A stretch of DNA of 64,000 nt from Octopus vulgaris. Lineage: Eukaryota. Where the stretch lies: assembly GCA_951406725.2 (NCBI GenBank), contig OX597834.1, positions 31,806,001-31,870,000 on the forward strand, read 5' to 3'. Below are positions 22,587-64,000 of this stretch, piece by piece. How positions within the stretch are numbered: the stretch's first letter is position 1; every line of letters begins with the position of its first letter. Made by a program: the position numbers and the translations under genes. The notes under the pieces were generated by a model. The model was not told the origin of the DNA. It was given only the letters and a program-made list of their open reading frames with translations, and ran no database searches.

Positions 22587-22629
<43 letters not shown>

Positions 22630-25584: not shown

Positions 25585-25755
25585 ATGGCACAGAAAATGG
25601 ATATCAACGTTATGCCAGTGATCGGTGGAGTGTGCTGTTATTGTATACTGCTTTTATACCTGGGCAAGAAATTCTGGTACTATTTTGATTTCTTCTTGTC
25701 GCTCGTAGCAGGAACAGGTCTGTTGACGCTGGCACCACAGTTTATTAAAACCCAG
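25585..25755 (+). CDS. First coding exon A of a multi-pass membrane protein gene (TP53I11/PIG11-like motif pattern)
   Basis: ATG in good context (gcaATGg) at 25585; 57 codons MAQKMDINVMPVIGGVCCYCILLLYLGKKFWYYFDFFLSLVAGTGLLTLAPQFIKTQ with two hydrophobic segments; consensus donor CAG|GTAAGT in phase 0; non-repetitive, CpG-retaining context. Confidence 0.8.
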
Positions 25756-27076
25756 GTAAGTTCTGCTTTAGATTACTCTCAACACCTGAGTCCAGAGACG
25801 ACGAGGCAACGGGGGAGTGGGGAACCCGGTCTCGTTTCATTTTATATTCTATGTTCTCGAAGTCTCTACATTTCACGATATTGTTAAACCCAAGGGCAGT
25901 CTTCATCCGGTATCCCCCTGTGCGGGGGTATCCCGTCCTATATTTGTATTTTTCAGACATATATCTACAACTACACTCTCCAGTATATTCTTTATATATA
26001 CATATTAAAAAAAAACAATTGGGTGTGGATGTAGAGAGAGCGCGGGAGCTATCACTTGTCTATATTTAGCAGGTCAAACGACGAAGAAGCGGCCTCTTCT
26101 TCCTCGTTAGGTCTGTCTAATTAGTGTTTGCAGCGTGGATGGTCGCATAATATTTAGGGCCGTTGTTATTTAATATACTGCGGAAAACTAGCTGGAATGC
26201 TTTAGCGTTGGTATATAGGGGTAGATTGACAGGTCGAATAAACACAAAATGCGTCTTCACCCAGATAACCAGGCGTGGGTGGCAGATAAGCAAGTTGGCG
26301 CTTTTTTCTTTTTTTTTCAGTTTGTCCATTCGTCTTTGTATTTTAAAATCTATTGATGCCTGGCATTTATATTTTATTTTGTGTATAAAATACAAAACGA
26401 TAATTCTGGTCTCGGGTCCTTATTTAATTCGCCCGGTTCAACTTTTAGTTTCCGATACTATTACAGCATTTCTTATATTAATTTGAAAACTTTATTCTCA
26501 GCTCCTATTGTGTGTATATTTTAAACCGGATAAAGACAACGTAAGAGTCTAAGATGGGTCTTCAGTATCTGACGATGCCGTGACTTTATTTCATGTAATT
26601 TCATGTATCAATATTTGCTTCACTTTTCAATGACGTTATTTTCATGGTCGTTCCATCTCGTTCCATCACGCCTGAAAAAAAAATCGTTATTTTACAAGGT
26701 GCTGCGTACATTTATGTATCTTTTGTCCTTTACTTGTTTGTCATTGGACTGCGGACATCGATCCCAGTAATTACTTTTAAAGCCTGGTACTTCTCCTCGA
26801 TCGGTGTCTTTTTGCCGAACTGCTAAGTTACTGAGACGTAAACAAACTAACACAAGTTGTCAAGCGATGATGGGCGACAAACACAAACACACACATAATT
26901 AATATGACTGGTTCATTCAGTTTCCGTTTATCAAATCAACTCACAAAGCTTTGGTCAACCAAGAATTATAGTAAAGGATACATGCCCGAGGTGCCACACA
27001 ATGGTACTGAACACCAAAGAATACGGTTGGGGAAGCAAACTTCTCACCACACAGCCACACCTGCACCTATATATGT

Positions 27077-27118
<42 letters not shown>

Positions 27119-29450
27119 TTTATTGTTCCGTTGTAGTTAGGATCAATAAAAAAAATTTTTTCCATCCAATGAGAGATAAACATCATTTAATATTCAAAAT
27201 ATTTAAGTAAAAGCTACTGATAGTTTCAGGCAATGGAAACACAATAAAATTTGTAGATTTATACAACTTCTGTCTCTAGACAGTCTTTCACACTCAGTGT
27301 ATTGAGCCTAAAAATTTGTTCGGAAACAGAAGACACGTGGTATAAATTTATCGTGTTTCCACAGCATGAAACTATCTAGCTCTTACGTAATGTGTGTGTT
27401 GCCCTACTTGTTCGTCTGATTAGCCTGTAAATACAATGTGCTAATTAAAAGAAACTTGAGTGAACAATACAATTTCGTTTTTCATTTCATCCTCGGTTTT
27501 ATTTCGCTTTTTCTATTGACAACGCTTTGAAATACTCTCACCCCGCCCCGTCTCTTACGTGTATTAACGACCAACGGACACCTTGTATTAAACAAATTTA
27601 AATGGTTATTTTGTATTTGGAAAAAATAAAGGACCTAAAACTTCAAAAGGAAAGGGATTTATCAAACAACTATCAAAATATAAGCAGCTGTAGTCTAGAC
27701 GTCTTTTGACATAACTAGATAATTGTTTCCTTTGTTTTTGAAGAGCTTCAATAAAGTTGTCTCCCTTCCTTAAACTGACATTTTTCATAAGAATATAGAA
27801 AATCTATTTCGATATTTGACTGGTTGTTATTTTTATTGATGCCATCGAAGGGTGCTGGAAAGAGGTTGGGATGTGAATTTAGAACAACAAAAGACGTAAG
27901 CATTTCGGAAAAGATGAAAATTGAGTGTGAAAAGCTAAATATAATTAAAATGATCTGATGAGATGAGAACCGTAAAAGCTCCCGTTATGCCACGTGGTCG
28001 ATCGCTTGTTATAAATAGCAGCTAAAAAAAAAATTCTCCCTCGAACCACGCCTTTTTTTTTTCTTCTTTAAGAAAAAAGGTGCGACATATTGGATACACT
28101 TCGATACACAGCTCCACTATTTCTCTCGTCGTCCCTCAACACGCACAGAAACCCCTCGGTGGTGGTGGTTGGACATATGCTCTGCTGGGTCGAAGTAAAT
28201 GTCAGTATTTTGAAGACCTTGTGGGTGTAATAATGTAACGGAGATTTTGTGGTTATTACGTTCGAGTGACAGGTGACTGACAAAATCGCGAGATCGTCAG
28301 AAGATACTCAGGGTTCAAATCCTGACAATGTCAGCTACATCTTCCTTTTTTTTTTTTTTTTTTTTGTTAAGGGCCGATAAAATGAGATGGATTTAATATT
28401 CCTAAAAACGTCCTAGAGCTTTTATCTGTTACTTGTTTGAACAACGGCCTTGCTGAAGCACCACCTTGGAGGGCTTAGTCGAACGAATCGACCCCAATAC
28501 TTTTTTTTTAAAGTCCGGTGCTTATAGTCTATCGGTGTCTTTTTTCCGAACCGCTAAGTCACAGGGACGTAAACAAACCATCACCGGTTGTCAAGCGCGC
28601 GACGGGCGTTTTTCAGTTTCCGTCTACCAAATCTACTGACAAGGCTTTGGTCGACCTGGGGCTTTAGTACAAGATGCTATGGAACTGAACTCGGAATCCT
28701 ATGGTTGGAAAGCAAGCTCCCTATCGCACAACCACGCCTTCACCTGTGATGAGAAGACTACAGATAAGACCCTGTGGTATTATTACGTAGGAATTATTAC
28801 CCAGAGGTTATGAGGTTAAGCTGAACAGGTTCTGGTTGACGTGAGAAGCTGTTGGAATTTATAGAGATTGCCATGATACAATCAGGTGTCATCCAAAACC
28901 GAAGAATTCTAATCAATGCATGAAGAATCGTTCTCGGCGGAAATAGAAATTATTTGAATTTTTGTGACGATTTAAAGATTGAACGATTACGATGAGACAA
29001 TTTGAAATATTTCATTTGATCTGAGTTTGCTAACTGGAATGAGAGTCGCCGATCGAGATGTTTACGGTTTTGTTTAAGCGGAGTTGCTATGGATACAGCT
29101 GACCAACCAGATGCATTTGTTTACTTTGCGTTGCTATGTAAACAAACGAATCACGTGACAGCAGTTGATATTGTTTCATGTGGTAACTTCAGCATATTTG
29201 TCCATTGGATGGATGGTCAGAATTGCTGACTCGATCGTTTCTGCCTATACTTTCGTATTTTGTTTGGACTGAGCCACCGGACATTACGTAGTCAACAATT
29301 TCATTATTACTTGCTTGCATAATCTGTATTTAATTATTAGCTTTTTTTTTTATTATCTGACAGTTGTTCGTTAGAGTGTCCGAAAGAAAAATGCGCTATT
29401 TTTTATTATTTTCACGCCCGGCTACCCTTGAGGGTTATATTTTATCTAAG

Positions 29451-29810
29451 ACGCAGGAGTGACTGTGTGGTGGGTAGCTTGCTTACCAACCACATGGCTC
29501 CGGGTTCAGTCCCACTGCGTGGCACCTTGGGCAAGTGTCTTCTACTATAGCCTCGGGCCGACCAAAGCCTTGTGAGTGGATTTGGTGGACGGAAACTGAA
29601 AGAAGCCCGTCGTATATATGTATATTTATATATGTGTGTGTGTTTGTGCCCCCAACATCGCTTGACAACCGATGCTGGTGTGTTTACGTCCCCTTAACTT
29701 AACGGTTCGGCAAAAGAGACCGATAGAATAAGTACTAGGCTTACAAAGAATAAGTCCTGGGGTCGATTTGTTCGACTAAAGGCGGTGTTCCAGCATGGCC
29801 GCAGTCAAAT
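29451..29810 (+). mobile_element. SINE family 1 copy
   Basis: Same head, body and 3' sequence as 5474-5906 on the opposite strand. Confidence 0.9.
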
Positions 29811-32046
29811 GCTTCATTTAGATCACGTTAAACAAGGAAGCTTTTATCATAGGACCAGGGGTGGTCTTGGGTGCGCTGGGGGTCAATAAGGTTACATCAT
29901 AATCACAGGGTACGCTGTAACCCTTTAGCATTCAGATCAATCTGTCAAACGTAATGCTTATTTATTTACGCTGTTTTGAATGAATTGTGTATTATCTCGT
30001 AGCTTTGAGATTTCAATCATATAATCACATTCAGTGCTTGAATTTGCTGTGGGAAAAATAGTTTTTGTTTATAACTACTTCAGGTGATGAACAACCTTCA
30101 AAAATGAATTCATCATCATCATCATCATCGTTTGACGTCCGTTCTCCATGCTAGCATGGGTTGGGCGATTTTGACTGAGGGCTGGCGAACCAGATGGCTG
30201 CACCAGGCTCCAGTCTTATCTGGCAATGTTTCTACAGCTGGATGCCCTTCCTAACACCAACCACTCCGTGAGTGTAGTGGGTGCTTTTTACGTGCCACCT
30301 GCACTGGTGCCAGGCGAGGCTGGCATCGGCCACGGTCGGATTGGTGCATTTTACGTGCCACCTGCACGGAAGCCAGTCGAGGCGGCACTGGCTTCGGCCA
30401 CGATTTGGATGGTGCTTTTTACGTGCCACCGACACGGAAGCCAGTCGAGGCGGCGCTGGCATCGGCCACAATTCGGATAGTGCTTTTTACGTATCTCCAG
30501 TCCAGAGGTCCTGGCATCTGCCGGGTAAAATTCATAAATCAAGATTCCACTGTATTTGTGTTGAGAGTGATGCGTTTCTACATACCTTATTACTTCTAGT
30601 GTTTAACGACATAAGCTCCACTGAAAAACTGTATCTGTGATGAATATGGATTTAACCACAAATACATGAAAATAATGGCTGAAGAGTTATGGTGCAAAAC
30701 ACCAAAAGGTGCTGTTAGATACACTAGTGGTCAAGCGGTCATCAACTATTTGCATATTATTACGATATGTTAGTGGTGTTGTACAATAATTATGAGATGT
30801 AAATTGATTTCTCTAAGCTATTCTGTGGAGTGTGATGGATCCAATTAAAATATTATCATTATTGCTTAACGTCCACTTTTCCATGCTGGCATGGGTTGGA
30901 GGGAGTTTATTATTGAGGCAGATAGATTTTCTACTGCTGGATGCTTTTCATGATTATATTTTCTTGTAGCTTGACATGTTTTCACAGAATATCAGAAATG
31001 AATGACACTGCTTGTATGACAGTGGCACTCACTTACAACGATTGCAGATGTTAAATGATGATGACGACACCATGTCAAAAGGAGATGCAAAGACACACAC
31101 ACACACAGCACATCATGGGTTTCTTCCAATTTCCGTTTGTCAAATCCACTTAAAGTTTGGTTGGCTCATGGCTGCAGTAGAAGACACTTGCCTGCCCAAG
31201 ATGCCCTGTAGTGGGACTGAACCTAGGACTGTCTGGTTGGGGAACAATCTTATTTACATTTGTTACTAATCAATAAGAAAAGTGTTCAGATGCATAAAGT
31301 TGGTATTGCTGTAACTTTTTGTATTGTTTAGGGATCATTCAACCCTAACCCTACTAATACAGTATTTTGGGGTCTAGCATGGATTTCAGCCCTTCAAATG
31401 TAGTAATAGCTGATCCCATAAATTTAACCTTAATTGCCTAAAAAATATTTTTTGACACAGACATATACAGTACTCCATATTCCCTGACATTACTGCTATT
31501 TCTAGCAACCACATATAAACTCTCTCGTTAGTTTGAATTATTAATTAAGAATTTAGGGAGCATGTAAATGAAATGCCTAGATCGGCTCCAATCATTTTCG
31601 TCTCCCTTCTAGCTATCTAGAGTTACTTCCCTTGGCTTTTCTTTTTTTGTGTGTGAAGTGCTGGGGGTTCCTTTCACCTTCATAATTAGCTTATATTTAA
31701 TATTTCTTAAGAATTTCAGGTAGGTCAGCGTCTAATAGAATTTATAAAACATCAGACTTATATATCTTGCAATATTTCGTTTGCTTAAGGCGGCAAGCTG
31801 GCAGAAACACCAGGCAAAATGCTTAGTGGTATTTCGTATGTCTTTACATTCTGAGTTCAAATTACACCGAGGTTGACTTTGCCTTTCATCCTTTCGGGGT
31901 TGATAAATTAAGTACCAGTTGCCTACTGGGTCGATCTAATCAACTGGCCCCCTCCCCAAAAATTTCAGCCCTTGTGTCTAGGGTAGAAAAGAATATTTTT
32001 CCATATCATTCTAAGTTCAAATCCAACCAGGTTCAACTTATAAATT

Positions 32047-32990
32047 CAAGGTGTCCCCCCAAAAAATGTCCACACATTGAATGATTATAAAATCAGTGTT
32101 TATTTTAAACCCATTTCGTTTTCAAACTGACGACTGCTGATAACATGAAGCAAATGGAATCACAATCACCATAAAACGTTTCCATTCAGTATTTGTACAT
32201 ATTTTCGTTTTATGGCTACCCTCAGTTCGTTGAGAGTTGCTCACTTTAAATTTTATCTTTGAAATATCCCTATAAAAAACGTCTATTGATTTGAGGCACA
32301 GTGAACATGGAGAGTATTCTACTGAGTCTGTTTGGCAAAATCTCATCCTAATAGGCCCTTACATTACTACAGTTAGTGTTGGGGTGTTCTCCCACTCACA
32401 CCATCTTGCTGGAAATAAACATGACATCTTCAAAGTATTGAATACTTGGCATGATAGATTGTGACAGTAAGTTCGAATAAATGGGACCAGTCAGAGTATC
32501 ATCAGAAAAGAATGGTCCTGTTAATCCTTTTGATAAGCTGCACCATACTGTAACTCATCCTAAATTAACCTGACGTTCCTCCATTAGTTGCAGGTTCTCA
32601 GATCCCCAGTAGCTGTAATTTTGAGCCATTTCATTTAAATGTAGCCGCATTACTTCAAACAATCTTTGTTTGAAAGTCTACATTTTCTACACATCTTGCT
32701 ACAAGTTCCACTCCCAAAACATCAGTCTTTGGTCAGGATTCATCTTCATTGACAGCATGGAATGTCATTTTTCAAATGGATGCTTCATCTTGAAATTCCT
32801 ATTTCACAGCCCTTTTGCCTAACAGATTTTCTGCAACTCTAGCAATATGTCTCTACTAGTTTTTCTTGCTTTGTTGTGGTCATCAGTGTCTGTACTCTTG
32901 CAGAACATTCCATGTGGACATTTTGAACGGTTCCATCTGCCTCAAACGTATCTCCAGCTTGAATGTTGGGAAGTGGATCTGTTTAAAACT
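32047..32990 (-). mobile_element. Degenerate Tc1/mariner-superfamily transposase relic
   Basis: Minus-strand remnants resembling IVWSDEATF, QNYSYWGSEN and FQQDG motifs; cagggtgtcc-like terminus at about 32047; many stops. Confidence 0.6.
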
Positions 32991-32999
32991 CTCTCCTAA

Positions 33000-33219
33000 C
33001 CCTTTCTTTACTGTATTTATTTTGAGATGCCCTGTGTTACTTTCAATTACTTTAAATGTAACAAAGAATTAAGTAAACTAACTTAGTTATCATTCAGCTA
33101 GTGTTAGGAACATAAACTGTGACTAAGGTTTGGTGGAAGATTTTAATTCAAAACTTATGAAAACAAGACATTTGTACTCAGAGCCAGAGGCGGTTTCAGC
33201 CGGGTTGGTATCAAAAGGG
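33000..33219 (+). mobile_element. piggyBac-type MITE, same family, CTAA target
   Basis: Homologous to 37807-38028; CTAA on both sides. Confidence 0.8.
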
Positions 33220-37806: not shown

Positions 37807-38028
37807 CCCTTTTGTTACTGTATTTATTTTGAGATGCTCTGTGTTTCTTTCAATTAATTTTAAATATAACAAAGAATTTAGTAAAAATAACTAAGTTATC
37901 ATTCAGCTGGTGTTAGGAAGATAAATTGTGACTAAGGTTTGGTGGAAGATTTTAATACAAAACTTATGAAAACAAGACATTTGTACTCAGAGCCAGAGCT
38001 GGTTTCAGCTGGGTTGGTAACGAAAGGG
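37807..38028 (+). mobile_element. piggyBac-type MITE
   Basis: TTAA-CCCTTT...AAAGGG-TTAA termini. Confidence 0.85.
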
Positions 38029-38382: not shown

Positions 38383-38784
38383 GGATCTTTTCTGTTTGAA
38401 CAGCAGTTTTTCTAGCGGTGTCATATGAAATTGTCACCCATAATTATGACCCTAGTATCGATCTATTGCATTTCAATGTGTTAGGGTTAGGGGTGGGGGG
38501 AAGGGTATCTTTTTCTTCTTCACAAATGTAAATAAACCGAATCTGTTTCTTAAACGAGTGACATATTCATACGGCACAGAATGTTTTTTACCTCAAGAGA
38601 CGTCAGTGATTGGTTGAAATTGCAGAAAAAAAAACAACAAATGTCTTACAAACTATAGAATTTTCTCAATAAAGCCAAGAGAAAAATATGTTTTATAAAC
38701 ACATTCTACCAGTATACGAAGTTTAAAAGTGTTTAGTTACGTGGAAATTATTTTTAAAAACTGCCGTTCAAACCGAAAAGATCC
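38383..38784 (+). mobile_element. Second copy of the GGATC-TIR MITE, inserted into a SINE
   Basis: TSD aacctcag at 38375-38382 and 38785-38792; highly similar to 20704-21119. Confidence 0.9.
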
Positions 38785-39761
38785 AACCTCAGTACTTATT
38801 CTCTTTTAAAGCCTGGTATTTATTGGTCTCTTTTGCCGAACCACTAAGTTACAGGGGCGCAAACACTCTGGTTGGGTGGGGGACAAAAACAGTCACAAAC
38901 AGATGTGTATATACGGCAGGCTTCTTTCAGTTTCCATCTACCAAATCCACTTACAAGGCGTTGGTTCGCCCGAGACTGTAGCAGGAGATACTTGCCCTAG
39001 GTGTCACGCAGTGGGACTGAACCTGAAACCCCGTGGTTGGCAACCAAACTTCTTACCACACCGCCAAATAGATAATTTCTAAGACGTGTTAAATTGTTTT
39101 ATATATAACTTTACATAAGAGAAAAACACTAAAAACAATAAGCAAACATTAACACACACACACACACACTTATTAGCATAAGTGTTAATAATCTTATAAT
39201 CTTGGGTTGATAATGCGTTTTCCCAGGAAGTAATTCTGAGATCTTTCTATGAAGAACGCACGCATAAACATACACACTCACTCGCACTCACACACAGCCA
39301 TATCCACCCGTATACGCATACCCGCTCATTTATTTCCGCGTTGTTTCTTAATCAACCAGTCAAAACAAATAAACACCAGATTTTTCTTCGTGTGCCGGTG
39401 ATGAAGACGATGGCGGGTGATGCAGACGTGCCATGCCCGTTCGCTCTTCCTCTCTTACACTCTCGCCACTCCCCCTCTCCCTCATCCTCTCCGTTTCCCT
39501 CTCTATTTCTCCTCCCATTTCCCCCCTCTTTCTCCCTTGTTTACTCTCTACCCTACCCCCCCCCCCACGCTGCTAACTTGTAGCATCTTCTAACATTTAC
39601 TATCCGATTCCTCCCTATATATTATTATTATTATTTATTTAGGGATTTAGATTTTCTGTTCAGTGAAGTTTTAAATAAGAAGGGAAAGTGCGAGTGTGGC
39701 GGCGGCGGAGGCGGCTCTTCACCTGTCTATCCTCCCTCCCACGCCTTTGTTTGTAGTTGTC

Positions 39762-39800
<39 letters not shown>

Positions 39801-40121
39801 GGTTAATACTTCGACCTCCTCCTCCGTCTCGCCACTGTTTACAGAGCACCGTCTCCTCTGCGTTACCTGCTTTCGCTTAACTTGCCAATATATATATAAT
39901 AAGGGTAAAATTAATTAATTACTAATTAATAATTTTACCAAGCAGTGTTCAGTGTGTAAAGACCATTTACGGTATATTTAACATTACTTAGTATAGAGTG
40001 CAGCAAAAAATTTACTTCACAACACACCGAACTTTTTGAAATAGCACCCAAAGAATTTAGCTATTTCCTCTTACTATAAGAAGTCTCCCAGACAATGTAT
40101 ACTCAAAAACAATTCACATAG

Positions 40122-40179
<58 letters not shown>

Positions 40180-41561
40180 TCTTTTACTTGTTTCAGTCAT
40201 TTGACTGCGGTCATGCTGGAGCACCGCCTTTAGTCGAGCAACTCGACCCCGGGACTTATTCTTTTTGTAAGCCCAGTACTTATTCTATCGGTCTCTTTTT
40301 GCCGAACCGCTAAGTGACAGGGACGTAAACACACCAGCATATATATATATATATAATGTACACATACACATTCTCTCTCTCACCCACACACATGCAGGTT
40401 TGGTGATGCAAAGAGGGAAATAGAACTCGGAACATGAGTCTGCAATTGGCGGCAGAAGTTATAGAGTGACTCGGGCGCCTAGAGTTTCGGGCATTGGCAC
40501 TTACTAAATTACATATAAAATTTCCATACACTTTTATATATTTATATATATATATATATAATTATCAATAATAAAGGGTGAAATTAATTAATTAATTAAT
40601 TTAGAAATAATCATTAATTTCACCAAGTAGAGTTCGGCATGTAAAAGACCCATTCAAGGAAGGTTTAAGTAATACTAAGTAATTAAGGGATCAGCAACGA
40701 TTTGCCTCACCATACACCGAATTTAGAAATAGCAGTCAAAAAGTTTTGGCTATTCTTTCTACTTAAAAGGGGGATCCCAGTAAAACCAAAGCACTTAAAA
40801 AACAAACGGCGCAGGCAAAAGAGACAGAAATGACGAAAATCATTCTATATTAAGTTACCTACGGACGCATATATATATATAAACTTATGTAGAAGTGCTG
40901 GGTAGATATTTTCTGTTACAGTGTGTTTATCAAGAGATTTATTCCTCCCGTTTTGCATTTCGTCCTTCTTTGCTCCACTTGTCCATAGCACTCGCGCCCA
41001 CCCAAGTAATTTCAGTCTATTTACAATAGCTGAGCACTTTTACTGAGTAATATATATATATATATACGTGAATTATTTTTGAGTAAGCACTTTCAGGGAG
41101 ATTCTTCTTAAAGTAGTAGAAATGGCTAAAGAAAATTTTTTGGGGGGCTGCTATTTCTAAAAATTTCAGTATGTGGCAAAGTAAATTATTTTACTGAGCC
41201 CTTAATTATATAAAGTAATATTTTGAATACGCCTTGAATGGTCCTTTTACATACTGAAAAATACTTGGTGAAATTAATTATTAACTAATTGATTTTACCC
41301 TTAATTATTGATAATATATATATATTAGGGTGGAGTCTTCGACTTGGCCTGAGCATGGACTCAAACTCAAATGAAATGAAATATATATATATATGAGAAT
41401 CCTTCTCAGTATATATGAGTAAAATATGAGCATCCTTCTAAGTTCCTGTAACTCTCATTGACACAGATAGATAGACGGATAGACAGACAGACATACGCAC
41501 GCGCATACATACGGCACTCACACGCGCACATCCATTTAATACACACGTAAGAAGGAAACAG

Positions 41562-41798
41562 ATGCAGTCACCGATGGCTTTCGCCAACTACACGGATTTG
41601 ACTGTGAACTCGGCCGGGTTGGTGGTAACCCCGCTGGGCCACATACCGGTCCCCTATTTCCTCCAAGTGGTTACCGTCATTCTCATTTTCGCTGTTTCCC
41701 TCTCCTCTGGATTTTCGCTATGGATGATGTTCGACCTTTGGAGTATGTTCATCTACGGACTGATCCAGCTATTTTTCCCGTTTGTTTTTATCCCGCAG
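41562..41798 (+). CDS. Alternative (paralogous) first coding exon B of the same membrane-protein locus
   Basis: ATGs at 41562 and 41574 in frame; 79 codons ending ...GFSLWMMFDLWSMFIYGLIQLFFPFVFIPQ; consensus donor CAG|GTGAGT in phase 0; shares W-x-x-F-D-x7-G...FI-x1,2-Q with exon A; no polypyrimidine tract upstream. Confidence 0.72.
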
Positions 41799-43639
41799 GT
41801 GAGTGCCCCTACCCCCACCCATTGCTATTATTATCGTTGTCGTTGTCGTTATTTCATTGCCACATGTTTTAAGTTCAAATCCTGCCTAGGTCGACCCGCT
41901 TGTCATTTCCATTCGGTCCAATTTCGAGTAACTCGACCGAACCGAAGATCTCTGGTCTTCTGCGTATGTTAGAAGTCGTTGTTATTGTATTTAGCTGTTG
42001 TTTAACCACAGGCTGTCTGTGTACCTATGGCCTAGGAGACCTTTGCGTCAAAGACGTTTCAACCGTGGCCACCACCCGCTATTTCTCTCGGACATTGCAT
42101 ATCTCGGACTACATTATAATTTTCCGACGCGTTGCTTTTTCAAGACAAAAAAGGATATAATCTAAGTGTTGTTGTTAACGATAACGACAGTCAAGCCGTG
42201 ACCATCCTGTCTTAAGAGTATATATAGCACTGCATTATCCAGTGTGTCCTTTATTGTTTATGATGGTGAGACTTAAGGGAGCATTGGCTTTTATTTCTAG
42301 CAAGGTGGTCAAGCGGTCGCTTAGAACAGGCTTTTGCAACTTACGAGAAATGGGCCGCATGAGACATGACGCATTATCAAGCGGGCCGCACTACTGAAAA
42401 AAAATTTCAAGGTAATTTTTCGTCGGCGTACTATCAAGAAAGTCCTGCGGGCCGCACTTTACCCATTATTTGGTAGGGGCTCCCCCCACTTCCACCTCTG
42501 CTGGTGTGTAACTGTTACCTCGCTCCATAATAATTAACTCCTTTCATTGCAATAATTAAACCCGGGGTCGTATCAAAATAAATCATTTGTTGGCAACGTT
42601 AGACATAGTTTCGTTCCTTTACGCTCTGAGTTCGAATCCTACCGAAGTCGACTCAGTGACTGTGTGTCTGAGACAAATATGAAAGGAGAGCGTACGAAAG
42701 TCTTGATTATTTAGTTCGGGTGGGTCGGAGATCAAAAGCATTTAATTACGTTTTTTAGTGAGCTGCAATTACGGAGTTTTCGAAGAGACGACGTAATTCA
42801 CCTTTTTGTTTCTACTTTAGTCTCTTTATGTTATGAGGGTAGGTTGTATGGGTGAATGACGTCGTGTACCAATACCGAAGGATTCCCAGAGTATTATTTA
42901 TTTGGGGTAGACTTTGGGGATAGCTACTCGAATTCAAAATCTCATTCTTCATGTGGAAAGGAAACGATCTGCCCGTTACGTTCTGAGTTCGAATTCCGCC
43001 GAGGTCGACTTTGCCTTTCATCCTTTCGGGGTCGATAAATTAAGTACCAGTTACGCACTGGGGTCGATATGATCGACTTAATCCGTTTGTCTGTCCTTGT
43101 TCGTCCTCTCTGTGTTTAGCCCCTTGTGGGTAGTAAAGAAATAGGTATTGAAGGAGGCCGAAATGGTCAATATAAAGATCTTCACTCGTGAACAAAAGAA
43201 TAAATGAACGGTCAAGGAAATGGGACGTGGGGCAACAAACATTTTTAAAATTGAAGAAAAAATACTTTTTTTTTTCAATTTAGAGCCGTCGTTTCCGCTT
43301 TAGAGATTAAATATATATACTAAAACAAAAAGTAAAGAAGGAAACAAAAGAACCCAGACAGGGGCGACCTCCCTCCCGCAACCCCTGTCCCAACAAAAAT
43401 AATTTGTTTTTGTATGTGTGTGTCTGCTTTTCTTGGTAATTTCATTTTCTTTTTACAATACCCATGTGACGAATAACAGGATTATGGTAAATCTAATTGA
43501 TGTGTGGCCTTGTCCATTAAGTTAGATATTGTTGTTGCTGTGGTTATTAATACGTTTGTTTTTTTTGGTTTTTTTTTTCGCTTTTCATGTAAACCCCTCC
43601 TCTCACAATACACACACTGCTTGTTATCTTCCAATATAA

Positions 43640-46161: not shown

Positions 46162-46211
<50 letters not shown>

Positions 46212-46804: not shown

Positions 46805-46836
<32 letters not shown>

Positions 46837-51845: not shown

Positions 51846-51882
<37 letters not shown>

Positions 51883-54800
51883 GTTATTATTAAGGCAGCA
51901 AGCTGGCGGAATTGTTAGCACACTGGACAAAATGCTTCGTGGTATTTCCTCTGTTGTTACGTTCTGAGTTCAAATTCCCCTGGGGTTGATTTTACCTTTC
52001 ATCCTTTCAGGGTCAATAAATTAAGTACCAGTCAAGTGCTGGGGCTCGATGTAATCGACTATCCCCCCTTCCACAGGTTTCAGGCCTTGTACCTTTAGTA
52101 GAAAGGATTATCATTATTATTATTATGTTCTCCAGTTCTTGAAAATTGGCTTATAAACACCCTCACCTTCCATGCTGTAATTGTTTTTGTTTCAGCACAT
52201 GATCTCAGATCAGGTCACTTGCTATGCAAGTACATCTCTGTGAAAATAATAAAAATGTTGAACTGTTTTGGCCATGCTGGGGCACTAGTCAAATATTTCG
52301 CTAAATCTCTTTGTAGCTTAGTCTCCCTCTGGTTCCTTGCTCATAATGGTGTGTGTTTCTAGGCTCTGGCACTTCACTTCTAAGACAAAAAAAGGAGTCT
52401 GTTTTGCTCCACCAAATTTAATGCTGTCCACAGAATACTTCAGCAGGGTGTGGTGTACATGTGTGAGCTTTAATTTCTTTATGTTTCCTTTAAAAGTACA
52501 CATGTTTGTGTAAGTGAAACACACAAACATAAAATGTACACATGTGTGTATGCGTGTGTGCATAGGTATTTCTGTGTATGTTTGTGTATATATATGTACG
52601 AATGTGTTTGTGTGTGTGTGTGTGTGTGAGAGCACAGTTATCTTAATCATGTGAGGGGGAAACTTCACTTGTGTTGAAGGGTTGAGCAAGTGGTGGGGTA
52701 TATCTGCTGCCCTTCAGCTAATTTTCTTCTTGTCTCTAGCCAGCTCCCCCTTTCTCTCCCTCCCCCCCTCTCTCTCTCTCTTCCTTTCCTCTATGTATCA
52801 GCTTCCACAGATTACAAAGCTGATGGTGGTGGTGGTGGTGGTGGTGGTAGCAGTGATGGATTTAGTGTGAGAAATACAAAAAAATTCCCTTTCTTTTAGT
52901 AGGGAATTTTGGGTGCTGGCATATTTCAACTGTGAAACTATTATATATTATTTTTATTATTATTATCATTAGTAGTAGTAGTAACATGAAATGTAGTAAA
53001 AATACCTTAGGATGATGTAAGAAATTATTATTATTATTGGTGGTGGTGGTGGTGGTGGTAACTAGGGCAAAATAGGGACCTGTAATGTATGTGACCCATT
53101 TAGGGAGAGAAAGAAAGAGCTGTTTATCACTGTCCCCTCCCCCACATCTACCAACTGTCCTCCTTAATTTAGGGCCCTAGCTGGGGTAGGTTTTGGGTGT
53201 TTGGTGGTAGTGGTGGTGGTGGTGGTGGTAGGGTGTGGTTCTTGAAGTCATCCTACATCATTGGCTCTTCTTATCTATCATCTGACTTTGTTTGTTGGTT
53301 TGTTGTTATATAAAATATCTCTTGTAAACATAATCATCATCATCATAACAACAACTATCATCACCATCCCCACCATCGGCAACATCATCATTATCATTAT
53401 CATGTTACGCCTATTGTTAAGATTCTCATTCAAAGATGCAGAGCTCTGTGTCCGTTAATAATACATAGACACACACATATATGTGTGCATATGCACATAC
53501 ACTTGTGTGTGTGTGTGAGTACTTTGTTTTGGGGTCTGGTTTGCAAGATTCTTTATGTGAATTTGTGTGTTGAAACAAATTTTATTGTGTCTAAGGAGAG
53601 TCATCATGTTAATATAATTAACACACACTCGTTTAATTCCACTCGTTTATTAAATATCTGATTGTTCTATTACATATTTAAAGAAAGAATTTTTTTTTAA
53701 ATGTTATTAACTATTTTTAAAATATTTAGAGAACAGAATGTCACAAACATTTGTGGAAGAAATTGTCTTAAAATACTCCTCAACATGAAAACATCTTCCC
53801 CAATGGATGGTTACAATTTGTTGTCTCAATAATTTTGTTGAGTTAATAACCTTTTAAAAGACAATATTTTTTTAACTGTCATCTAACAAAACCCTTTGAA
53901 ATATACATGGTGACTGAAACCTGGTGCATCTCTCTGGTTTGCCAACCCCCGTCAAACTGTGCTTTCCCGTACTCTGAGTTGCTCAATCCCGATGATTGAT
54001 GATCAGAACTGAGTGAATCTAAGCCTGGGAAATCAGAGCCTTTCAGTTACAGTGTATTAAAGAATACACTTGTAATCATTTCTGGTGACTCAGCAGATAT
54101 GTGTGTTTCAACTGATTTCCCTATGAAGGGATCATCATCGTTTAATGGTTGCACCAGGCTCCAATCTGATCTGGCAGAGTTTCTACAGCTGGATGCCCTT
54201 CCTAATGCCAACCACTCCAAGAGTGTAGTTGGTGCTTTTACATGCCACCGGCATGAGGGCCAGTCAGGTAGTACTGGCAACGTCCACGCTCAAATGGTGT
54301 TTTTTATGTGCCACTTGCACAGGAGTCAGTCCAGCGAAAAAAGCTTGCAGTTTAATGTGATGGAATCTTTATTATTCTTTATTAATTTTGTGAAATGTTT
54401 TCATGAAATTTCTCCAAATATTTCTAAACAAAAGCAGTAATGACACAAGGAAATTTTAGAAATTCATTTGATCAGAGTTAATAAGTTATCAATGATTCCA
54501 TGAAGGAGGTCAGTGATATTATAAGAAACTTGCTAATTCTTGGGGTTTTTTTCATTGTAAGAGCATAAATCCTTCCAGTTGAGGTGTGATGGTCATAAAG
54601 TAAGCAGTAGATTTTCCTGTCATAAACCCCATAGATTGAATTTTGCCACAGTTTCTTGCTGAGCAACATGCACAGACGAATTGTTTATAGTGATGAAATG
54701 CTTGTACATTAGCTCACTCTTAGCTGAAGAGGTTCACATTGTGCCACTTGTCAGAGGTTGAACTGATTGCAGAGCCAAGTGAGACAAAGTGATTTCTTCA

Positions 54801-55010
54801 AGAATGCAATGCATTGCTTAGTACAGGAATTGAAAGCACAACCTTGCAATCGCAAGTGCAACACCCTAAGCACAAGGCCATGTGCCTTCACTATATAATT
54901 AGAACAAGTTATATAACCAGCTCTTTTAAGAGTCTGCACCCATCCTTCCTTCTTCAAAATATGTGACTTTATTATTTTTTTTTTTTACACCTGTTCTGTT
55001 TCATTTACAG

Positions 55011-55154
55011 GTTGAAGTTCGTGTTGATGGCGTTCATCTGTTCATGGTTCGAGCATTTGGTATAATGCTGCTTGGTTCAGCCTATCTTTGGTGGAACGTA
55101 CGCAATTCCAAAGACATCACCGTACACACGACCCTGATGTGGGCCAGGGTGATG
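55011..55154 (+). CDS. Internal coding exon C (shared), transmembrane segment
   Basis: Long pyrimidine tract ending tttacag|; 144 nt, VEVRVDGVHLFMVRAFGIMLLGSAYLWWNVRNSKDITVHTTLMWARVM; donor ATG|GTAAGT; phase 0-0, in frame with exons A and B. Confidence 0.9.
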
Positions 55155-56164
55155 GTAAGTTACTCTATTTTATTTACTATTTATTTTTTCTTATCTATGT
55201 AGGTATCAAGAAATGTTTCAGAAGTTCGCTTCACAACCAAATGGTTTCCAGTTCAGTCCTACTGTGCAGCACTGTACACTCTTGTAACATTACCCCAGGC
55301 TGTCCATTGCCTTGTGAGTGAATTTGGTGGATGGAAACTGTACTGAGGCCCTTCAGCATTGCTTAACATCCGCCTTCTATTCTTAACCACACACTGCCAC
55401 GCCTGTGGTTAGAAGTATGTACAGTGTAATATGATCCGTGTGAGATTGAATGAATGTCTTCTGTTTCATGTGTTGTATAATAAATGTTTGGATTTATTGG
55501 AGAGGAGGCTGAGCTGAATTGGATTGGAAGCAAGGGGGGGCAGCTGTGTTGTTTAACTCTTTTGAAATCACCAACCTACTTGAGAACAGATGCAGGGTGC
55601 ATAAACAGAAAAATGATAACAAACGGTTAATAGGGAGTAAATGAAGTTTATTTATTCTTTTTTTTTTTCCAACAGTCAAACAAGGGTGAATACCCATGAA
55701 TTTTGGCTTACAGGCCACACCCAAGACTGGTAAAATTATCTGCAGATAACAAAATGTAAGAACCAATTCGGTTACGATGACAAGGGTTCCAGCTGATTCA
55801 GATAATGGAACAGCTTGCTTGTGAAATTAACATGCAAGTGGTTGAGTATTCCACAGACACACATACCCTTAACGTTGTTCTCAGGGAGATTCATTGTGAC
55901 ACAGAATGTGACAAACCTGGCCCATTGGCAATACAGGTACACCTCATTTTTGCCAGGTGAGTGGACTGGAGCAAATGAGAAATAAGGTGTCTTGCTCAAG
56001 GACGTACTGTGCCACCAGGAATCGAACTTATGACCTTACAAGTGTAAGCTGAATACCTTAACCACTGTACTAAGTACTTTCACCGAGGGTGTCCATACAC
56101 AAACACACACTCACATGTGTATATCACAGACTCACATGTGTATATACTACTACTACTAATAATA

Positions 56165-56383
56165 ATAATAATAATAAAATATAATAGTTTTACAGTTGAA
56201 ATATGCCAGCACCCAAAATTCCCTACCAAAAGAAAGGGAATTTTTTTGTATTTCTCACACTAAATCCATCACTGCTACCACCACCACCACCATCAGCTTT
56301 GTAATCTGTGGAAGCTGATACATAGAGGAAAGGAAGAGAGGGAAAGAAAGGGGGGAGCTGGCTAGAGACAAGAAGAAAATTAG
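56165..56383 (-). repeat. Inverted local duplicate of about 52719-52960
   Basis: cagttgaaatatgccagcacccaaaattccc...gagacaagaagaaaattag is the reverse complement of 52719-52935. Confidence 0.9.
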
Positions 56384-56614
56384 TAGTGTTTATGATTGTT
56401 ATAAACTGGAAGCATTGATGTAGTTGTTGTCTACTTTATCATCATCATCATCGTTTTAATGTCCATTTTCCCATGCTTGCATGGGTGAAATGGAATTTGT
56501 TGAGGCAGATTTTTTTATGGCCAGATGACCTCATTGTCACCAACCCATACCAGTTTCCGAGCAAGGTAAATGTTTCCCCATGACATCAATTTGCAGCGTC
56601 CCTCCACCTAGTGT

Positions 56615-56662
56615 CTGTGACTGAAGAGGAAGTAATCACTCTGAAATGCTTGTATCTCACAG
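56615..56662 (+). ncRNA. Type-I hammerhead ribozyme motif, first copy in a tandem retrozyme-like repeat
   Basis: ctgtga-CTGAAGA-ggaagt(aatc)actct-GAAA-tgcttgta-TC-tcacag: perfect 6-bp stem I, stem II with one bulge, short stem III, AUC triplet. Confidence 0.7.
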
Positions 56663-56676
56663 TCTGGATAGGTGGT

Positions 56677-57068
56677 AACAATCTGTTTAATGAGGTCAAA
56701 GCTATTTTACTTACAGTCTTCATTATTTTCAAACTTAATTGACATCAAGAGAATATATTTCAACAAGAATAGGGTTACAAAAGAGTTAACGAAGAAAAGA
56801 GAGAAAGCAAAGACTGTCTGTGTAATTTTAGGAAGATTTAACTTCTATTTCTAGCAGTTTGAATGATTGCACAGTGGTTTCCTCGTTGCCCCTGGGCTTT
56901 CTACAACGTTTTGGGTGGTGGTAGTGTGAGAGATAATAAATGTATCAATGAGTGAAGGGGAGGAGGAGGGGCAGTGAAAGACCATGTGACAGGAAGGGGA
57001 GACAGTAAAAGAGGAAGTTGGTATGAAACTGTGGCATGGGGGAGGATGGTGGTAAATTATTGCAGTGT
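56677..57068 (+). repeat. Direct local duplicate of about 50085-50463
   Basis: atctgtttaatgaggtcaaagcta...ggtggta present at both loci with high identity. Confidence 0.9.
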
Positions 57069-57330
57069 GCTGCAAACTGATCTAGGTGTATTTACACCAT
57101 TTGTCTACATCGAGAAATTTTCTCTATGACAAAGCACAGTGAATGTCTCGCTTATAAATTCATACGTGCCACTGGCATATTCAAACGGGTAATAACATTG
57201 CATTTATGCACTTCACTGCTTGGCACTCTCACCTCATAATTTATTTATGGTCAGCCAACATACAATGCCTGGAATAACATAGGAGACATTGTCTCTCTTA
57301 TCAGGTCGCAGCACCACCACCTGGTTTCTT

Positions 57331-57373
57331 TGACTGAAGAGGAGACAACTACCCCAAAATGTTTGCATATTAG
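57331..57373 (+). ncRNA. Degenerate second hammerhead copy of the same tandem repeat
   Basis: tga-CTGAAGA-ggagacaactacccc-AAAA-tgtttgca-TA-tta; GAAA box mutated; same flank (gtctggataggtgg) as the 56615 copy. Confidence 0.5.
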
Positions 57374-60300
57374 TCTGGATAGGTGGCGCTTCAAGCTGAT
57401 TTAGGTATGTTTACACCATACCAAGAAATTTTCTCCACAACATGAGATACTTAATGGCTTGTTTACAAATTCAAACATGCCACAAGCATACTTGAACTGG
57501 TGACAAATTTGTATTTGTACTCATCACTGCTTGGCTCTCCCCTTCCATAACAGGCTTCTTTTGGTTTCCATCAATCAAATTCACTCACAAGGCTTTGGTC
57601 ATGCTTTCCCAAGGTGCCACACAGTGGGACTGAACCCAAAACCATGTGGGTGGAACACAAACTCCTTACCTATTTCTTTACTACACACAAGGGGCTAAAC
57701 ACAGAGAGGACAGACAAACGGATTAAGTCGATTACATCGACCCCAGTACGTAACTGGTCCTTAATTTATCGACCCCGAAAGGATGAAAGGCAAAGTCGAC
57801 CTTGGCGGAATTCGAACTCACAACGTAACGCAGACGAAATACTGCTAAGCATTTCGCCCGGCGTGCTAACGTTTCTGCCAGCTAACGTTTTTACCATGTA
57901 GCCACACCTGCACCTGCTCGATATCTCCTAGGAAAGCAAGAAGATGAAATGAGGGTCTTGAATAGTTTTGTAAGAGAGTAAAACTGCAGTAAAGGTAAGA
58001 ATCTGGAGTGGCAAATTGATTGGAGCAAAATGGGGACAAATATATCGGGGTCCCATTACAGGTTTTTCTTTGCTTTAGAAATTAACTGGTTGTTGAGTAG
58101 GTGTGTAATTTGGAATTGATTATGGTATGTATAATGAATGTGTATGCATGTGTGTGTTTGGGAGTATATATGTATATGGTGTTTTTGTGTGTGAGTATAG
58201 TACATACATATATGCATGTATGGCATGTGGTGGGGACGTGTGTATGTGTTTATATATATATGTGTGTGTGTATGTAATGTGTGGTGGGGGAGTATATATG
58301 CATATACGGTGTTGTGTGTTGTATAACAGTCAATAGTTGTCTATCCAGTTTATGTAACAACTTGCTTGTTGTTTTACACATAAATGTTGCAGAAGGGGGT
58401 AGTGGGGATGGTGTGGTGCTGAGGCGGGGCAGGGTAGAGGGAACAATAACAGGCCAGTATTGGAGTATCTTACAGTGTGATTTCTCTAATTAGTCATCGA
58501 ACGGTCCTATTCCGCTGCCCCTTCTATCACCACCACTGTTACTACTACTACTACTGCACCTTACCAAATACTACCACCCCTGCTACTAACTATTACTAAC
58601 TACCATTACTACTTCTAAAACTATTACTGCAAATCTATCATTATGTTAGTGCAGTCTTTTGTAACATATACATGCATTTGTATTTGGGTGTGTATGGACA
58701 TGAATTCATATATGCACATGTACATACATTTACATATGGATGTGTGTATGTCATCATCATCCGTTTTCCATGCTAGCATGGGTTGGACGGTTCGACCAGG
58801 GTCTGCACCAGGCTCCAGTCTGATCTGGCAGTGTTTCTACAGCTGGATGCCCTTCCTAACGCCAACCACTCCGCGAATGTAGTGAGTGCTTTTTACGTGC
58901 CACCGGCACAGGTGCCAGGGGAGGCTGGCATCGGCCACGATCGGTTGGTGCTTTTAACGTGCCACTGGCACGGAAGCCAGTCAAGGCGGCGCTGGCGTGT
59001 GTAAATATAAATATGTATGTATATGTATGTATATAATTCTTATTATTAAGGTGGTAAGAAGGTAGCAAGCTGGCAGAATTGTTGGCACACTGGACAAAAT
59101 GCTTAGTGGTATTTCATCCATCGCTCTGTTCTGAGCGTACGTATGTATGTATGTATGTATGTATATGTATTATAGTAGGTGGGGAATTCCTGAATCTATA
59201 TAAAAGCCGTCTGTTTTCTCGATGCCACAGTATGACAACAATGGTTTTACATTAAAGAATGGCTTTATCTTTCCTAGCACACTGACTTGGTTCAAGTTTT
59301 GTATCACTGCTGGAACTGAAGTGTGCGGTGATGGCAGTTGTGGCATGGGAAAAGGTTGTGGTGTTTACAGTACTGGAGGGGGGTTGTGCTGGTGGGTATT
59401 ACAATAGCATTGTTGATGTTGGTGTGTGATGGTTTGGGTTGTGTAATATTTGTGTTCTGCTAGTAATGGTGGTTATAATGAAGTTGATGGTGGTGGTGAT
59501 GGTGATAACAATGAAGATCAGGATTGTTGTAGTGGTTGTCATGGCAGCAGTAGAAGCAGGGTTGGGAAGGGGGGACAGTGGTGGTTTCAGTAACAATGCG
59601 GTGGGTGGGCTGTAGAAACATGTCGCTGTTTAGCCCCAGGTCAACCCTGAATGAGCAGACTTACAATCAAAAGAATTCCAGCCATGACCTTCCTAGTTTG
59701 CCAAATCCATTCACAAGGTTTTCGTTTGCTCAGGGTTATAGAAGTCACTTGCTGAAGGTGCTGCACAGAGGGACTGAACCCAAAGCCATGTGGTTGGGAA
59801 GCAACTTCTGCTTTCATAGACATACATTGTCTCATCACTGTGTCCATATATATATATACACATGTGCGTACACGTATACACACTCACATGTCCCTCCCCA
59901 CATATGTATATCATTATTTAATGTGTTTGGCATGGATGGGTTGGACAGTTTGACGAGATCCATCAAGCTACAGTGTTGTGTTGAGCTCCAATGTCAGCTT
60001 TGGCACGGTTTCTATGGCTGGGTGCCATTCCTGATGCCAACCACTTCACAGAGTGTGGACTGAGTGCTTTCTTTCTTGCTAATGGCACAGGTGAGTGTTT
60101 GCCAGGTAACTTGCAAGGCAAGAAAGTACAGTAGAAAGAAAAAGGACCAAAGCCCCTTCATCTAAGCAGGAGGGAAGGGATTGAGGGAGAAGGAGGATGT
60201 GATTATATGCCTGGTGTTGAGGGGCTAAAATATCCGAGGACAGCCCAGGTACCTTGCTATTGAGTAAGCTACATGGCTACCTCACATGTGGTAGACATGT

Positions 60301-60632
60301 AGCTTATAGTGGTGGGTGGGATAAGCTGGAAAGGATATAGAAATGGTGGTGATGAGATGCCAGACCATCTCAAGATACAAGGGGATATGAGGGGAGAGTA
60401 GCAGACCTTTTCGGTTTTTTTTTCTGTTATTTGTTCCAGTCATTAAAGGGTGGCCATGCTGGGGCACCAAAACAAATTGACTCCAGTACTTACCTCTTTA
60501 ACCTTGCTACTTAATTCTATCAGTCTCCTTGCCAAACTGCTAAGTGACAGGATACACACCAGTACCAGTTGTCAAGCAGTGATGAGAGACAAACAGACAC
60601 ACACACACACGTGTGTGTGTGTGTATATATAT

Positions 60633-61040
60633 ATCATCATCATCATCATTTAACGTCCGTTTTCCATGCTAGCATGGGTTGGAAGGTTCAACTGGGGTCT
60701 GGGAAGCCAGAAGGCTGCGCCAAGCCCAGTCTGATCTGGCAGTGTTTCTACAGCTGGATGCCCTTCCTAACGCCAACCACTCCGAGAGTGTAGTGGGTGC
60801 TTTTTATATGCCACCTGCACAGGTACCAGAGGAGGCTGGCAAAACGACCATGATCGGGTGGTGCTTTTTACATGTCACCGGCACGGGGACCAGACGAGGC
60901 TGGCAACGGCCACAATCAGATGGTGCTTTTTACGTGCCACCGGCACGGAGGCCAGTCAGGGCGGCGCTGACAACGGCCACGTTTGGATGGTTCTCTTACG
61001 TGCCACTGGCACTGGTACCACAGCCACAATTTCCATTGAT
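60633..61040 (-). mobile_element. Family 4 short retroposon with (GAT)n tail and internal subrepeats (others at about 30111, 47835, 51260, 54132, 58750)
   Basis: (atc)n-tttaacgtccgttttccatgctagcatggg...ctggatgcccttcctaacgccaacc; resembles RTE-type 3' ends. Confidence 0.75.
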
Positions 61041-61051
61041 GTTGAACGATT

Positions 61052-61095
<44 letters not shown>

Positions 61096-61209
61096 CTTGC
61101 CGCTTTGTGGCCATGAAATATTGAACAGGGAACATGTCTACCATTGCTCTCTGAATAAAACCTATGTCAATTAAATTCTCCCTTTTTTTTATTTTTCCGT
61201 TTTCTTTAG

Positions 61210-61278
61210 GGTGGAGCAGCTGCTTTACTTGCTCAAGGTTTTGCTCAGTTCAACAAAGCCAGTCGTATGACCCAAGAG
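61210..61278 (+). CDS. Internal coding exon D (shared)
   Basis: Strong pyrimidine tract ending ttctttag|; 69 nt, GGAAALLAQGFAQFNKASRMTQE; donor GAG|GTAAGT; phase 0-0, continues the hydrophobic helix begun at the end of exon C. Confidence 0.85.
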
Positions 61279-63959: not shown

Positions 63960-64000
63960 TTTGTGTATTTCTTATTTTTAAAATTATTCTTGTTTTGCAG
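63960..64000 (+). other. 3' splice acceptor for the next exon (exon would start at 64001, outside the window)
   Basis: T-rich tract ending ttcttgttttgcag at the last base of the window. Confidence 0.65.

Follow-up and report, generated by a model that had tools for sequence, protein, structure and literature searches.

An octopus DUF8292 gene in which either of two probable first exons is joined to the same remaining exons

The window analysed here, a stretch of 64,000 nucleotides from Octopus vulgaris, holds two coding first exons, A and B, upstream of exons shared by both transcript forms of a DUF8292 gene. Its features are as follows (positions in the window).

24901 to 30500, no strand: CpG-retaining island around exon A (CpG o/e 1.00 versus 0.32-0.40 on both sides)
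25507 to 25584, plus strand: likely 5' UTR of isoform A, judged from the lengths of three contigs
25585 to 25755, plus strand: coding part of exon A, 57 aa; donor CAG/GTAAGT, phase 0; A-C junction in runs X2, X8, X11 and X13
26249 to 26293, plus strand: possible third first exon, short, non-homologous, 15 codons; matches O. bimaculoides isoform X3
38501 to 43500, no strand: CpG-retaining island around exon B in an otherwise CpG-depleted gene body (CpG o/e 0.98 versus 0.32 and 0.34)
41354 to 41561, plus strand: unspliced stretch ahead of the start codon in B and likely its 5' UTR (contigs of X14 and X13)
41562 to 41798, plus strand: coding part of exon B, 79 aa; donor CAG/GTGAGT, phase 0; B-C junction in runs X13, X14 and X5
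55011 to 55154, plus strand: exon C, first shared exon, 48 aa (translation, junction contigs)
61210 to 61278, plus strand: exon D, shared, 23 aa; C-D junction in X8 and X13
63975 to 64000, plus strand: acceptor of shared exon E, which begins at the first base past the window end

Checked on the sequence, the coordinates, start codons, translations, phase-0 boundaries and two CAG/GTRAGT donors of A and B are as an earlier note on this DNA had given them; the 9-mer CAG/GTRAGT occurs four times on the plus strand of the window. Three further exons, E, F and G, lie just past the window end (L005:501-695, 1949-2095 and 3457-3618). The claim of a single set of downstream constant exons agrees with a search in which the window and loci L001-L010, as 4627 six-frame segments, were compared with a full-length family profile: it found neither a second constant-exon set between A and B (best score there E=0.43) nor a third A/B-like exon. 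Homologous first exons number only two in the window and the 20 kb upstream of it. The candidate at 26249 to 26293 has a weak donor in this genome (CAA/GTTGGC), and this short exon was not among the contig ends listed in the runs examined. Both forms are already present in the NCBI automatic annotation, as isoform X1 (B form, 317 aa) and isoform X2 (A form, 295 aa) of O. sinensis and O. bimaculoides.

The two junctions proposed earlier as a test, 25755>55011 and 41798>55011, are both present in contigs from public runs. A is joined directly to C in all four runs, from four studies, that were compared with exon C, and B to C in three of the four runs compared with exon B, from two studies. Run X13 holds both junctions, and its row is a mixture of A ends and B ends that was reproduced exactly. 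Transcripts with A, B and C in series, which the earlier note regarded as contrary to its model, were not seen among the contig ends listed. These counts come from seven of the 24 runs listed, presumed to be RNA (none is recorded as such) and with tissues given in code; 47 further contig ends on the exon C side and 10 on the exon B side lie beyond those examined. Contigs show presence only and drop rare forms, and a minor A-B-C transcript or an upstream non-coding exon could escape them. Exon B was absent in X2, X8 and X11, and the B-C contig was unbranched in X5, which hints at sample-specific use.

Three isoform A contigs would start at 25507, 25517 and 25522 if unspliced, a weak hint, since contigs cannot show a start. 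At exon B, contigs spanning 41354-41800 (X14) and 41464-41800 (X13) cross the AG at 41560-41561 unspliced. At a depth of 40-42, they extend 208 and 98 bases, respectively, 5' of the B start codon, with pieces at depth 5-7 further up, and X4 and X5 contigs begin only at 41607. Low-depth X14 contigs reach upstream to at least 41100; some of the coverage ahead of B may therefore stem from intronic RNA of transcripts begun at promoter A. The tract upstream of the AG is purine-rich, with a pyrimidine fraction of 0.32 compared to 0.73-0.91 at the acceptors of C, D and E.

That both exons reside in CpG-retaining DNA is borne out by o/e values of 1.00 around A, 0.32 between the exons, 0.98 around B and 0.34 downstream, with segment limits chosen post hoc; CpG is also high in the window's first 22 kb (0.88). 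Each of two paralogous genes on contig C16 has a single first exon, with the same Q/GT end point and a similar CpG-retaining stretch. Octopus methylation, according to the available text of PMC9476566, lies on gene bodies and is scant at promoters. From the CpG pattern and the extent of the contigs, we infer that the two islands are an unmethylated promoter region A and a promoter B. The best local match between the roughly 570 bases upstream of A and of B was equalled by 73 of 200 shuffles, in a comparison of two sequences only that could miss a short motif.

Clusters holding the A and B forms and all coleoid hits carry the precomputed Pfam label DUF8292 (PF26941), and an Atlas feature match of 0.95 was obtained to a mollusc-rich DUF8292 cluster. 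Local Pfam scans, with a copy presumably older than PF26941, assigned no family to the exons, to the full proteins or to 67 of the 69 aligned members. The DUF8292 protein may resemble human TP53I11. Models of the two isoforms (pLDDT 92.7 and 92.0) predict nine membrane helices, and, in line with the proposed swap of the first two transmembrane helices, A and B encode the first two of these and a short surface helix. In the model, exon A comprises TM0 (residues 10-25), TM1 (28-48, with conserved Asp35) and a short helix (50-57), and exon B a sequon at Asn9, a beta-hairpin (20-29) and helices at 30-48, 51-71 and 73-79. The N-terminal sequon (NYT) noted in B and missing from A is indeed confined to B in this species, and every B form retains it. 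N-glycosylation sequons were found in five of five B sequences and one of five A sequences; the Argonauta A form has its own N-terminal sequon, and glycosylation is thus not strictly tied to B. Octopus B lacks the basic residues that follow TM0 in A.

An internal repeat scored 58, a value reached by none of 1000 shuffles, and conserved residues are paired as D35/D171, H66/H203 and R71/R208. Tentatively, the core activity might lie in this putative pseudo-symmetric Asp/His/Arg site, which would bind or handle a small ligand or lipid. No solved relative was found by sequence, and Foldseek gave no match at E<=0.001 for either isoform model. The best fold match was chain O of the Chlamydomonas Ycf2/Orf2971-FtsHi motor (PDB 8XQW, 8XKS; Foldseek TM 0.58, E=0.008). 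VIA-align placed it on the octopus model with a Z of 10.1, within the chance range for helical bundles, and an rmsd of 3.8 over 153 residues, at 14-16% identity. Judged by size and the partial model in the available text of 10.1101/2024.09.02.610899, chain O may be Moc45, itself uncharacterised, so the match gives no function. A literature search of main texts, mostly of non-subscription papers, returned no paper on DUF8292/PF26941, on the gene or protein accessions, or on cephalopod first-exon isoforms from alternative promoters, and a single, unrelated listing on exon duplication with alternative first exons in octopus.

The G/W/FD/G/L/Q pattern from which the kinship of A and B had been deduced is present in both peptides, but the F before D is not kept in decapodiform forms. 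Direct likeness is not significant (BLASTP E=0.25; profile-profile probability by hhalign 0.6%), and no DNA similarity was detected, 198 of 200 shuffles scoring as high. The exons comprise 57 and 79 codons (171 and 237 nt), and their protein identity is 23-24% over about 50 aa, or 16% on the first-exon tree alignment. Their mean local score is 30, whereas the medians of their scores with the other family members are 35 and 40, which places them no closer to each other than to the rest. An N-terminal profile built from 52 segments of family members outside this gene scored A at 28.7 bits and B at 13.3 bits, which none of 1000 shuffles reached in either case. Shuffle maxima were 9.3 (A) and 13.0 (B), so the margin for Octopus B is thin; decapodiform B forms scored 28.8 and 31.3 bits. 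By sequence, A and B can be regarded as homologous, each a version of the ancestral exon 1 of the family, a relationship established only through the family.

Elsewhere in the family a single N-terminal type is found: in 14 of the 15 oyster-cluster members listed (15 of 56), the remaining one being a truncated protein, in both scallop members and in each C16 paralog. The genome search for paralogs used two single proteins, and its list is a lower bound. In a quick tree of the constant region with 65 rows, from which the four B rows had been dropped as duplicates, no ortholog outside the coleoids could be resolved. Within coleoids, two decapodiform-type protein sets contain A/B pairs with identical constant regions (P0011/P0014 and P0017/P0016). 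The A forms, and likewise the B forms, cluster across octopods and decapodiform types with support of 100/98-100, and both exons are 35-51% identical between Octopus and decapodiform types. Since A/B pairs occur in octopods as well as in the decapodiform-type sets, the pair likely predates the octopus-squid split, for which the cited date is 285-340 My, and the two-start arrangement is likely about 300 million years old. A cuttlefish model, P0012, carries a chitin-binding N-terminal extension, which had no match in the window or loci L001-L010; it is probably a fused gene model.

Taken together, we favour, with a probability of roughly three in four, the reading that either first exon of this gene is joined directly to the same remaining exons to give two mRNAs, with likely separate promoters and with A and B homologous and likely duplicated before the octopus-squid split. 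It is most improbable that A, B and C are instead consecutive exons of one longer protein, or that one of the first exons is an unused relic or annotation artefact. The AG directly before the B start codon would preserve the frame of a serial transcript, but it is crossed unspliced, the direct A-C and B-C junctions recur across runs, the two exons never occur together in the 11 coleoid proteins aligned, and the conservation of each exon between Octopus and decapodiform types argues against a relic. Somewhat less remote, though still very unlikely, is that B is an alternative second exon reached from an upstream non-coding exon or from the A promoter, the choice being one of splicing and not of promoters. 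The low-depth X14 cover upstream of 41354 and the late beginning of the X4 and X5 contigs would fit this; the deep unspliced contigs upstream of B do not, nor does its own 5 kb CpG-retaining island, of the kind seen at the true first exons of the paralogs.

The origin of the pair was addressed with first-exon trees of 34 rows (a chosen subset) and 65 rows (segments of >=45 aa) over 52-55 columns. As to the old exon duplication proposed earlier, each exon is homologous to family exon 1; A and B do not come out as sisters in the free trees, and an A+B clade is not rejected (AU p 0.35 and 0.25). A and B likely arose by duplication in place. A derivation of A from the C16 paralog subfamily, hinted at by the 34-row tree, was lost with the 65 rows that include the C16 first exons. 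It is unlikely, yet less so than the splicing alternative, that A and B were the first exons of two once-separate DUF8292 genes, either through tandem duplication of the whole gene followed by loss of the downstream exons from one copy or through capture of a first exon from an older paralog. The divergence between A and B, which equals that between distant family members, and the grouping of A with paralog P0039 (94/93) in the 34-row tree speak for such an origin. Against it, this grouping disappeared with 65 rows, the A+B clade is not rejected, and no trace of a second constant-exon set lies between A and B, although after 300 My one would not be expected. A bolder combination appears more doubtful still, namely that two anciently separate DUF8292 genes merged in the coleoid ancestor and that promoter choice has for ~300 million years switched the ligand specificity or compartment of a putative membrane transporter or enzyme in a cell-type-specific manner; each start would then contribute TM1 together with half of the paired Asp/His/Arg core.

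Under the favoured reading of two first exons on common remaining exons, transcripts from promoter A would skip B because B would lack a usable 3' splice site, and transcripts from promoter B would simply begin downstream of A. Both proteins are predicted to form the same nine-helix membrane bundle, made up of two repeats of four helices each and a single extra helix; the N-terminus would lie on the non-cytosolic side. In the models, the swap would exchange TM0, TM1 and the short surface helix but preserve the conserved aspartate of TM1. B would add a glycosylated hairpin on the luminal or extracellular side. We consider it an evenly balanced possibility that the arrangement serves cell-type-specific expression of two versions with equal core activity and differing trafficking, stability or partners.

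The likeness drawn earlier to UGT1A and clustered protocadherins holds for the layout only: two exons exist here, at about 23% identity, and no common upstream motif was found. Promoter choice in protocadherins is stochastic and CTCF-dependent. Octopus A and B lack the high similarity, near-equal length and many-exon array of UGT1- or protocadherin-type loci. Clustered protocadherins and chelicerate sDscam genes use promoter choice among 5' cassettes that feed constant exons, as the octopus gene probably does; as described in the available text of PMC9258826, they have tens of cassettes and a cell-identity code, whereas the octopus gene has two exons and no array. The sDscam genes make such a layout already known in invertebrates (PMC9258826). 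In vertebrate GCNT2, UGT2A and UGT1, variable first exons are each spliced separately to constant exons, two in UGT2A and one to three in GCNT2, where the variable part includes the N-terminal membrane segment (PMC1885805, available text). Those exons are large, differ little in length and resemble one another closely (64% nucleotide identity in UGT2A), and the UGT1 ones encode a substrate-recognition domain behind a conserved promoter motif (PMC1885805); octopus A and B, in contrast, encode two of nine helices, share no detectable upstream motif and have no protein homology to these loci. In N-terminal substitutions by tandem exon duplication through alternative promoters, homologous 5' coding exons are used one at a time; as far as the available text of PMC8373072 describes them, such substitutions are rare and mostly very old (in human 236 when every type is counted, with an age of at least 425 My for >90%). 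With that class the octopus gene shares homologous N-termini on a common body and exons spliced singly; it differs as a coleoid gene in which A and B have diverged beyond direct detection and duplication in place is only likely. The arrangement belongs to homologous alternative first exons, already known from other animals.

The mechanism is unsurprising, and this gene alone opens no long-standing question. The class has been catalogued mainly in vertebrates, and the octopus gene is an invertebrate addition to it; its importance would grow should variable-first-exon genes turn out to be common in coleoids. That a homologous first-exon pair has persisted in both lineages of coleoids suggests that each isoform is needed in its own right, and with A and B nature has set up a helix-swap experiment on an uncharacterised nine-helix family that is widespread, being found in animals and red algae, with structural look-alikes in prokaryotes.

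The earlier note read the layout of the locus correctly, and the feature is both real and conserved: two alternative first coding exons, A and B, precede shared exons of a gene for a DUF8292 membrane protein. All four proposed exon positions were borne out, with GT/AG ends and phase-0 junctions at A to D.

Coding exons of the gene within the window
25585-25755, plus strand: first coding exon A, 57 residues from the ATG at 25585, donor CAG/GTRAGT
41562-41798, plus strand: first coding exon B, 79 residues from the ATG at 41562, donor CAG/GTRAGT
55011-55154: shared exon C
61210-61278: shared exon D

The window ends at the acceptor of the next shared exon, E, which was found with two more (F and G) in L005, the sequence beyond it. 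Together, these exons give full-length products of 295 (A form) and 317 residues (B form), both letter-identical to NCBI models of Octopus vulgaris and O. sinensis (LOC115222861, whose isoform X1 is the B form and X2 the A form). The O. vulgaris models were left out as independent support, as they may derive from the same assembly. O. bimaculoides LOC106877804 has the same isoform pair, X1 and X2, plus X3 with a short start. The equivalent of the 15-codon first exon of X3 lies at 26249-26293, 500 bases past exon A; it would yield a protein without TM0 and TM1, has a weak donor in O. vulgaris, and was seen in none of the run contigs aligned here. A degenerate partial copy of exon F (L005:2534-2626; 61% identity, 31 amino acids), with no obvious acceptor, lies in the following intron.

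Splicing was followed in assembled contigs of public sequencing runs (7 of 24 listed), which are guessed to be RNA, a guess that the spliced joins in them favor. Both junctions that the earlier note had proposed to check were present. At the 5' end of exon C, read in contigs from four runs of four studies, the overhang consists of the last bases of exon A in X2, X8, and X11; X13 provided two contigs with a mixed consensus (agreement, 0.67), rebuilt exactly, agreement value included, by letter-wise combination of the A and B ends. Exon B was covered by contigs from four runs of three studies, and X13, X14, and X5 join its 3' end to exon C, the X4 contig (41607-41795) stopping short of the junction. 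Transcripts with A, B, and C in series, which the earlier note regarded as speaking against its reading, were looked for and not seen among the loose ends listed for these contigs, which drop rare forms. Contigs of B match the genome from 41354 (X14) and 41464 (X13), unspliced across the AG at 41560-41561, and the tract before this AG is 32% pyrimidine, versus 73 to 91% at acceptors C, D, and E. The contigs also carry C in place of A at 55124 (4/4 runs covering exon C) and T in place of G at 41606 (2/2 runs covering the site), which may be alleles or reflect related species or assembly differences.

Homology of A and B holds by way of the family, but direct comparison of the two gave no significant similarity. 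A profile of 52 N-terminal segments from other family members detected 5/5 A and 4/4 B peptides at 13 to 31 bits, and the Octopus scores were matched by 0 of 1,000 shuffles. Two DUF8292 paralogs face each other on opposite strands of another contig (G000:C16:24941828-25008200; L012-L020, L022, L023, and L027), and their first exons end at the same Q/GT position as A and B. By profile recognition and this common end, A and B are both versions of the family exon 1. Free trees did not join them as sisters, and the AU test left an A+B clade unrejected (p, 0.35 with 34 rows and 0.25 with 65 rows). Grouping of exon A with another DUF8292 subfamily, seen at first, was gone with more rows. Since A and B are adjacent and in the same orientation, we prefer duplication in place, which parsimony favors. 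In the C16 minus-strand paralog, the last exon contains an in-frame TGA, and the first exon is more diverged. A copy of the C16-type paralog that lacks introns and later runs into stops (G000:C24:28542089-28542427; L011 and L031) is probably a processed pseudogene.

Both exon types are probably old. P0011, an A-type related protein that differs little from the named Acanthosepion pharaonis model P0012, shares its constant region unchanged with the B-type P0014. The same is true of P0017 (A) and P0016 (B) from a second protein set, which we take as decapodiform from a four-residue insertion in common with cuttlefish. In trees, A forms cluster together and B forms cluster together across octopod and decapodiform-type lineages with full support; PMC10925132 dates the octopod-decapodiform split to 285 to 340 million years. 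Octopus and cuttlefish-type sequences are 46% identical in A, 51% in B, and 71% in the constant part, both first exons changing faster. The oyster and scallop relatives, putative orthologs at most, and the C16 paralogs have one N-terminal type among the members seen.

CpG observed/expected ratios along the window
24.9-30.5 kb, around exon A: 1.00
30.5-38.5 kb, between the A and B islands: 0.32
38.5-43.5 kb, around exon B: 0.98
43.5 kb onward: 0.34

Octopus DNA methylation falls on gene bodies, with little at promoters (PMC9476566), and on this basis we infer that the exon B island, within a CpG-depleted gene body, would fit an internal promoter. The two C16 paralogs served as a control: the one first exon of each sits in a similar CpG-retaining stretch, depleted about 5 kb into the gene. 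We propose two promoters, one per first exon, each exon with a strong donor; exon B would lack a usable acceptor, so that transcripts from promoter A would skip it.

Just upstream of exon B, 41163-41316 shows eight A>G differences in low-depth X14 contigs and forms inverted repeats with 40561-40659. The cluster has the appearance of A-to-I editing in intronic or 5' RNA, but the contigs may instead derive from other alleles or copies of the repeat. Immediately upstream of the exon A island, 21500-24500 is CpG depleted (observed/expected, 0.2 to 0.6), which may be a methylated element or reflect an undetected neighboring transcript, and 1-21000 is CpG rich. Minus-strand fragments at 10900-12660 and 16900-18360 resemble LINE-type reverse-transcriptase open frames by eye and by their motifs, and a tandem repeat at about 600-1290 (unit, ~75 bases) remains open over long stretches in two phases.

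DUF8292 (PF26941) had 94 matches at E≤0.001 among 50%-identity representatives; the ten looked up included bivalve, chiton, brachiopod, echinoderm, and red-algal members. AlphaFold2 models (pLDDT, 92.7 and 92.0) have nine long and two short helices, a predicted architecture in which two repeats of four helices follow one additional N-terminal helix. The internal repeat score exceeds 1,000/1,000 shuffles, an intron follows the same Q in both repeats, and the conserved residue pairs D35/D171, H66/H203, and R71/R208 are present in 62 to 83% of 60 other members. The sole notable fold match was chain O of the Chlamydomonas import motor, itself uncharacterized, and Atlas structure neighbors were unnamed prokaryotic proteins and DUF4345-like single repeats. 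Exon 1 encodes TM0, TM1 (with D35), and the first short helix, the aspartate being kept in A and B versions. In B there is also a predicted beta-hairpin, whose T-P-L-G turn occurs in all B forms, and the N-terminal N-x-T first noticed in exon B recurs as an N-glycosylation sequon in 5/5 B sequences versus 1/5 A. N-glycosylated segments lie outside the cytosol; by this rule, the sequon in B would imply an N terminus outside the cytosol.

The suggested logic of vertebrate UGT1A or clustered protocadherin loci stands in part. The gene works like GCNT2, UGT2A, and UGT1 (PMC1885805) and sDscam (PMC9258826), but its variable exons are neither highly similar nor arranged in an array. It fits among the homologous alternative N termini that come from duplicated 5' exons (PMC8373072). 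No paper on this gene or the DUF8292 family was found in the literature searched.

According to the models, seven helices and the greater part of the polar core would be the same in both isoforms; the differences would lie at one bundle edge and in a predicted glycosylated luminal hairpin. Isoform choice most likely leaves a common activity in place and changes expression and trafficking, or partners; a bolder alternative would be a change of ligand specificity through TM1.
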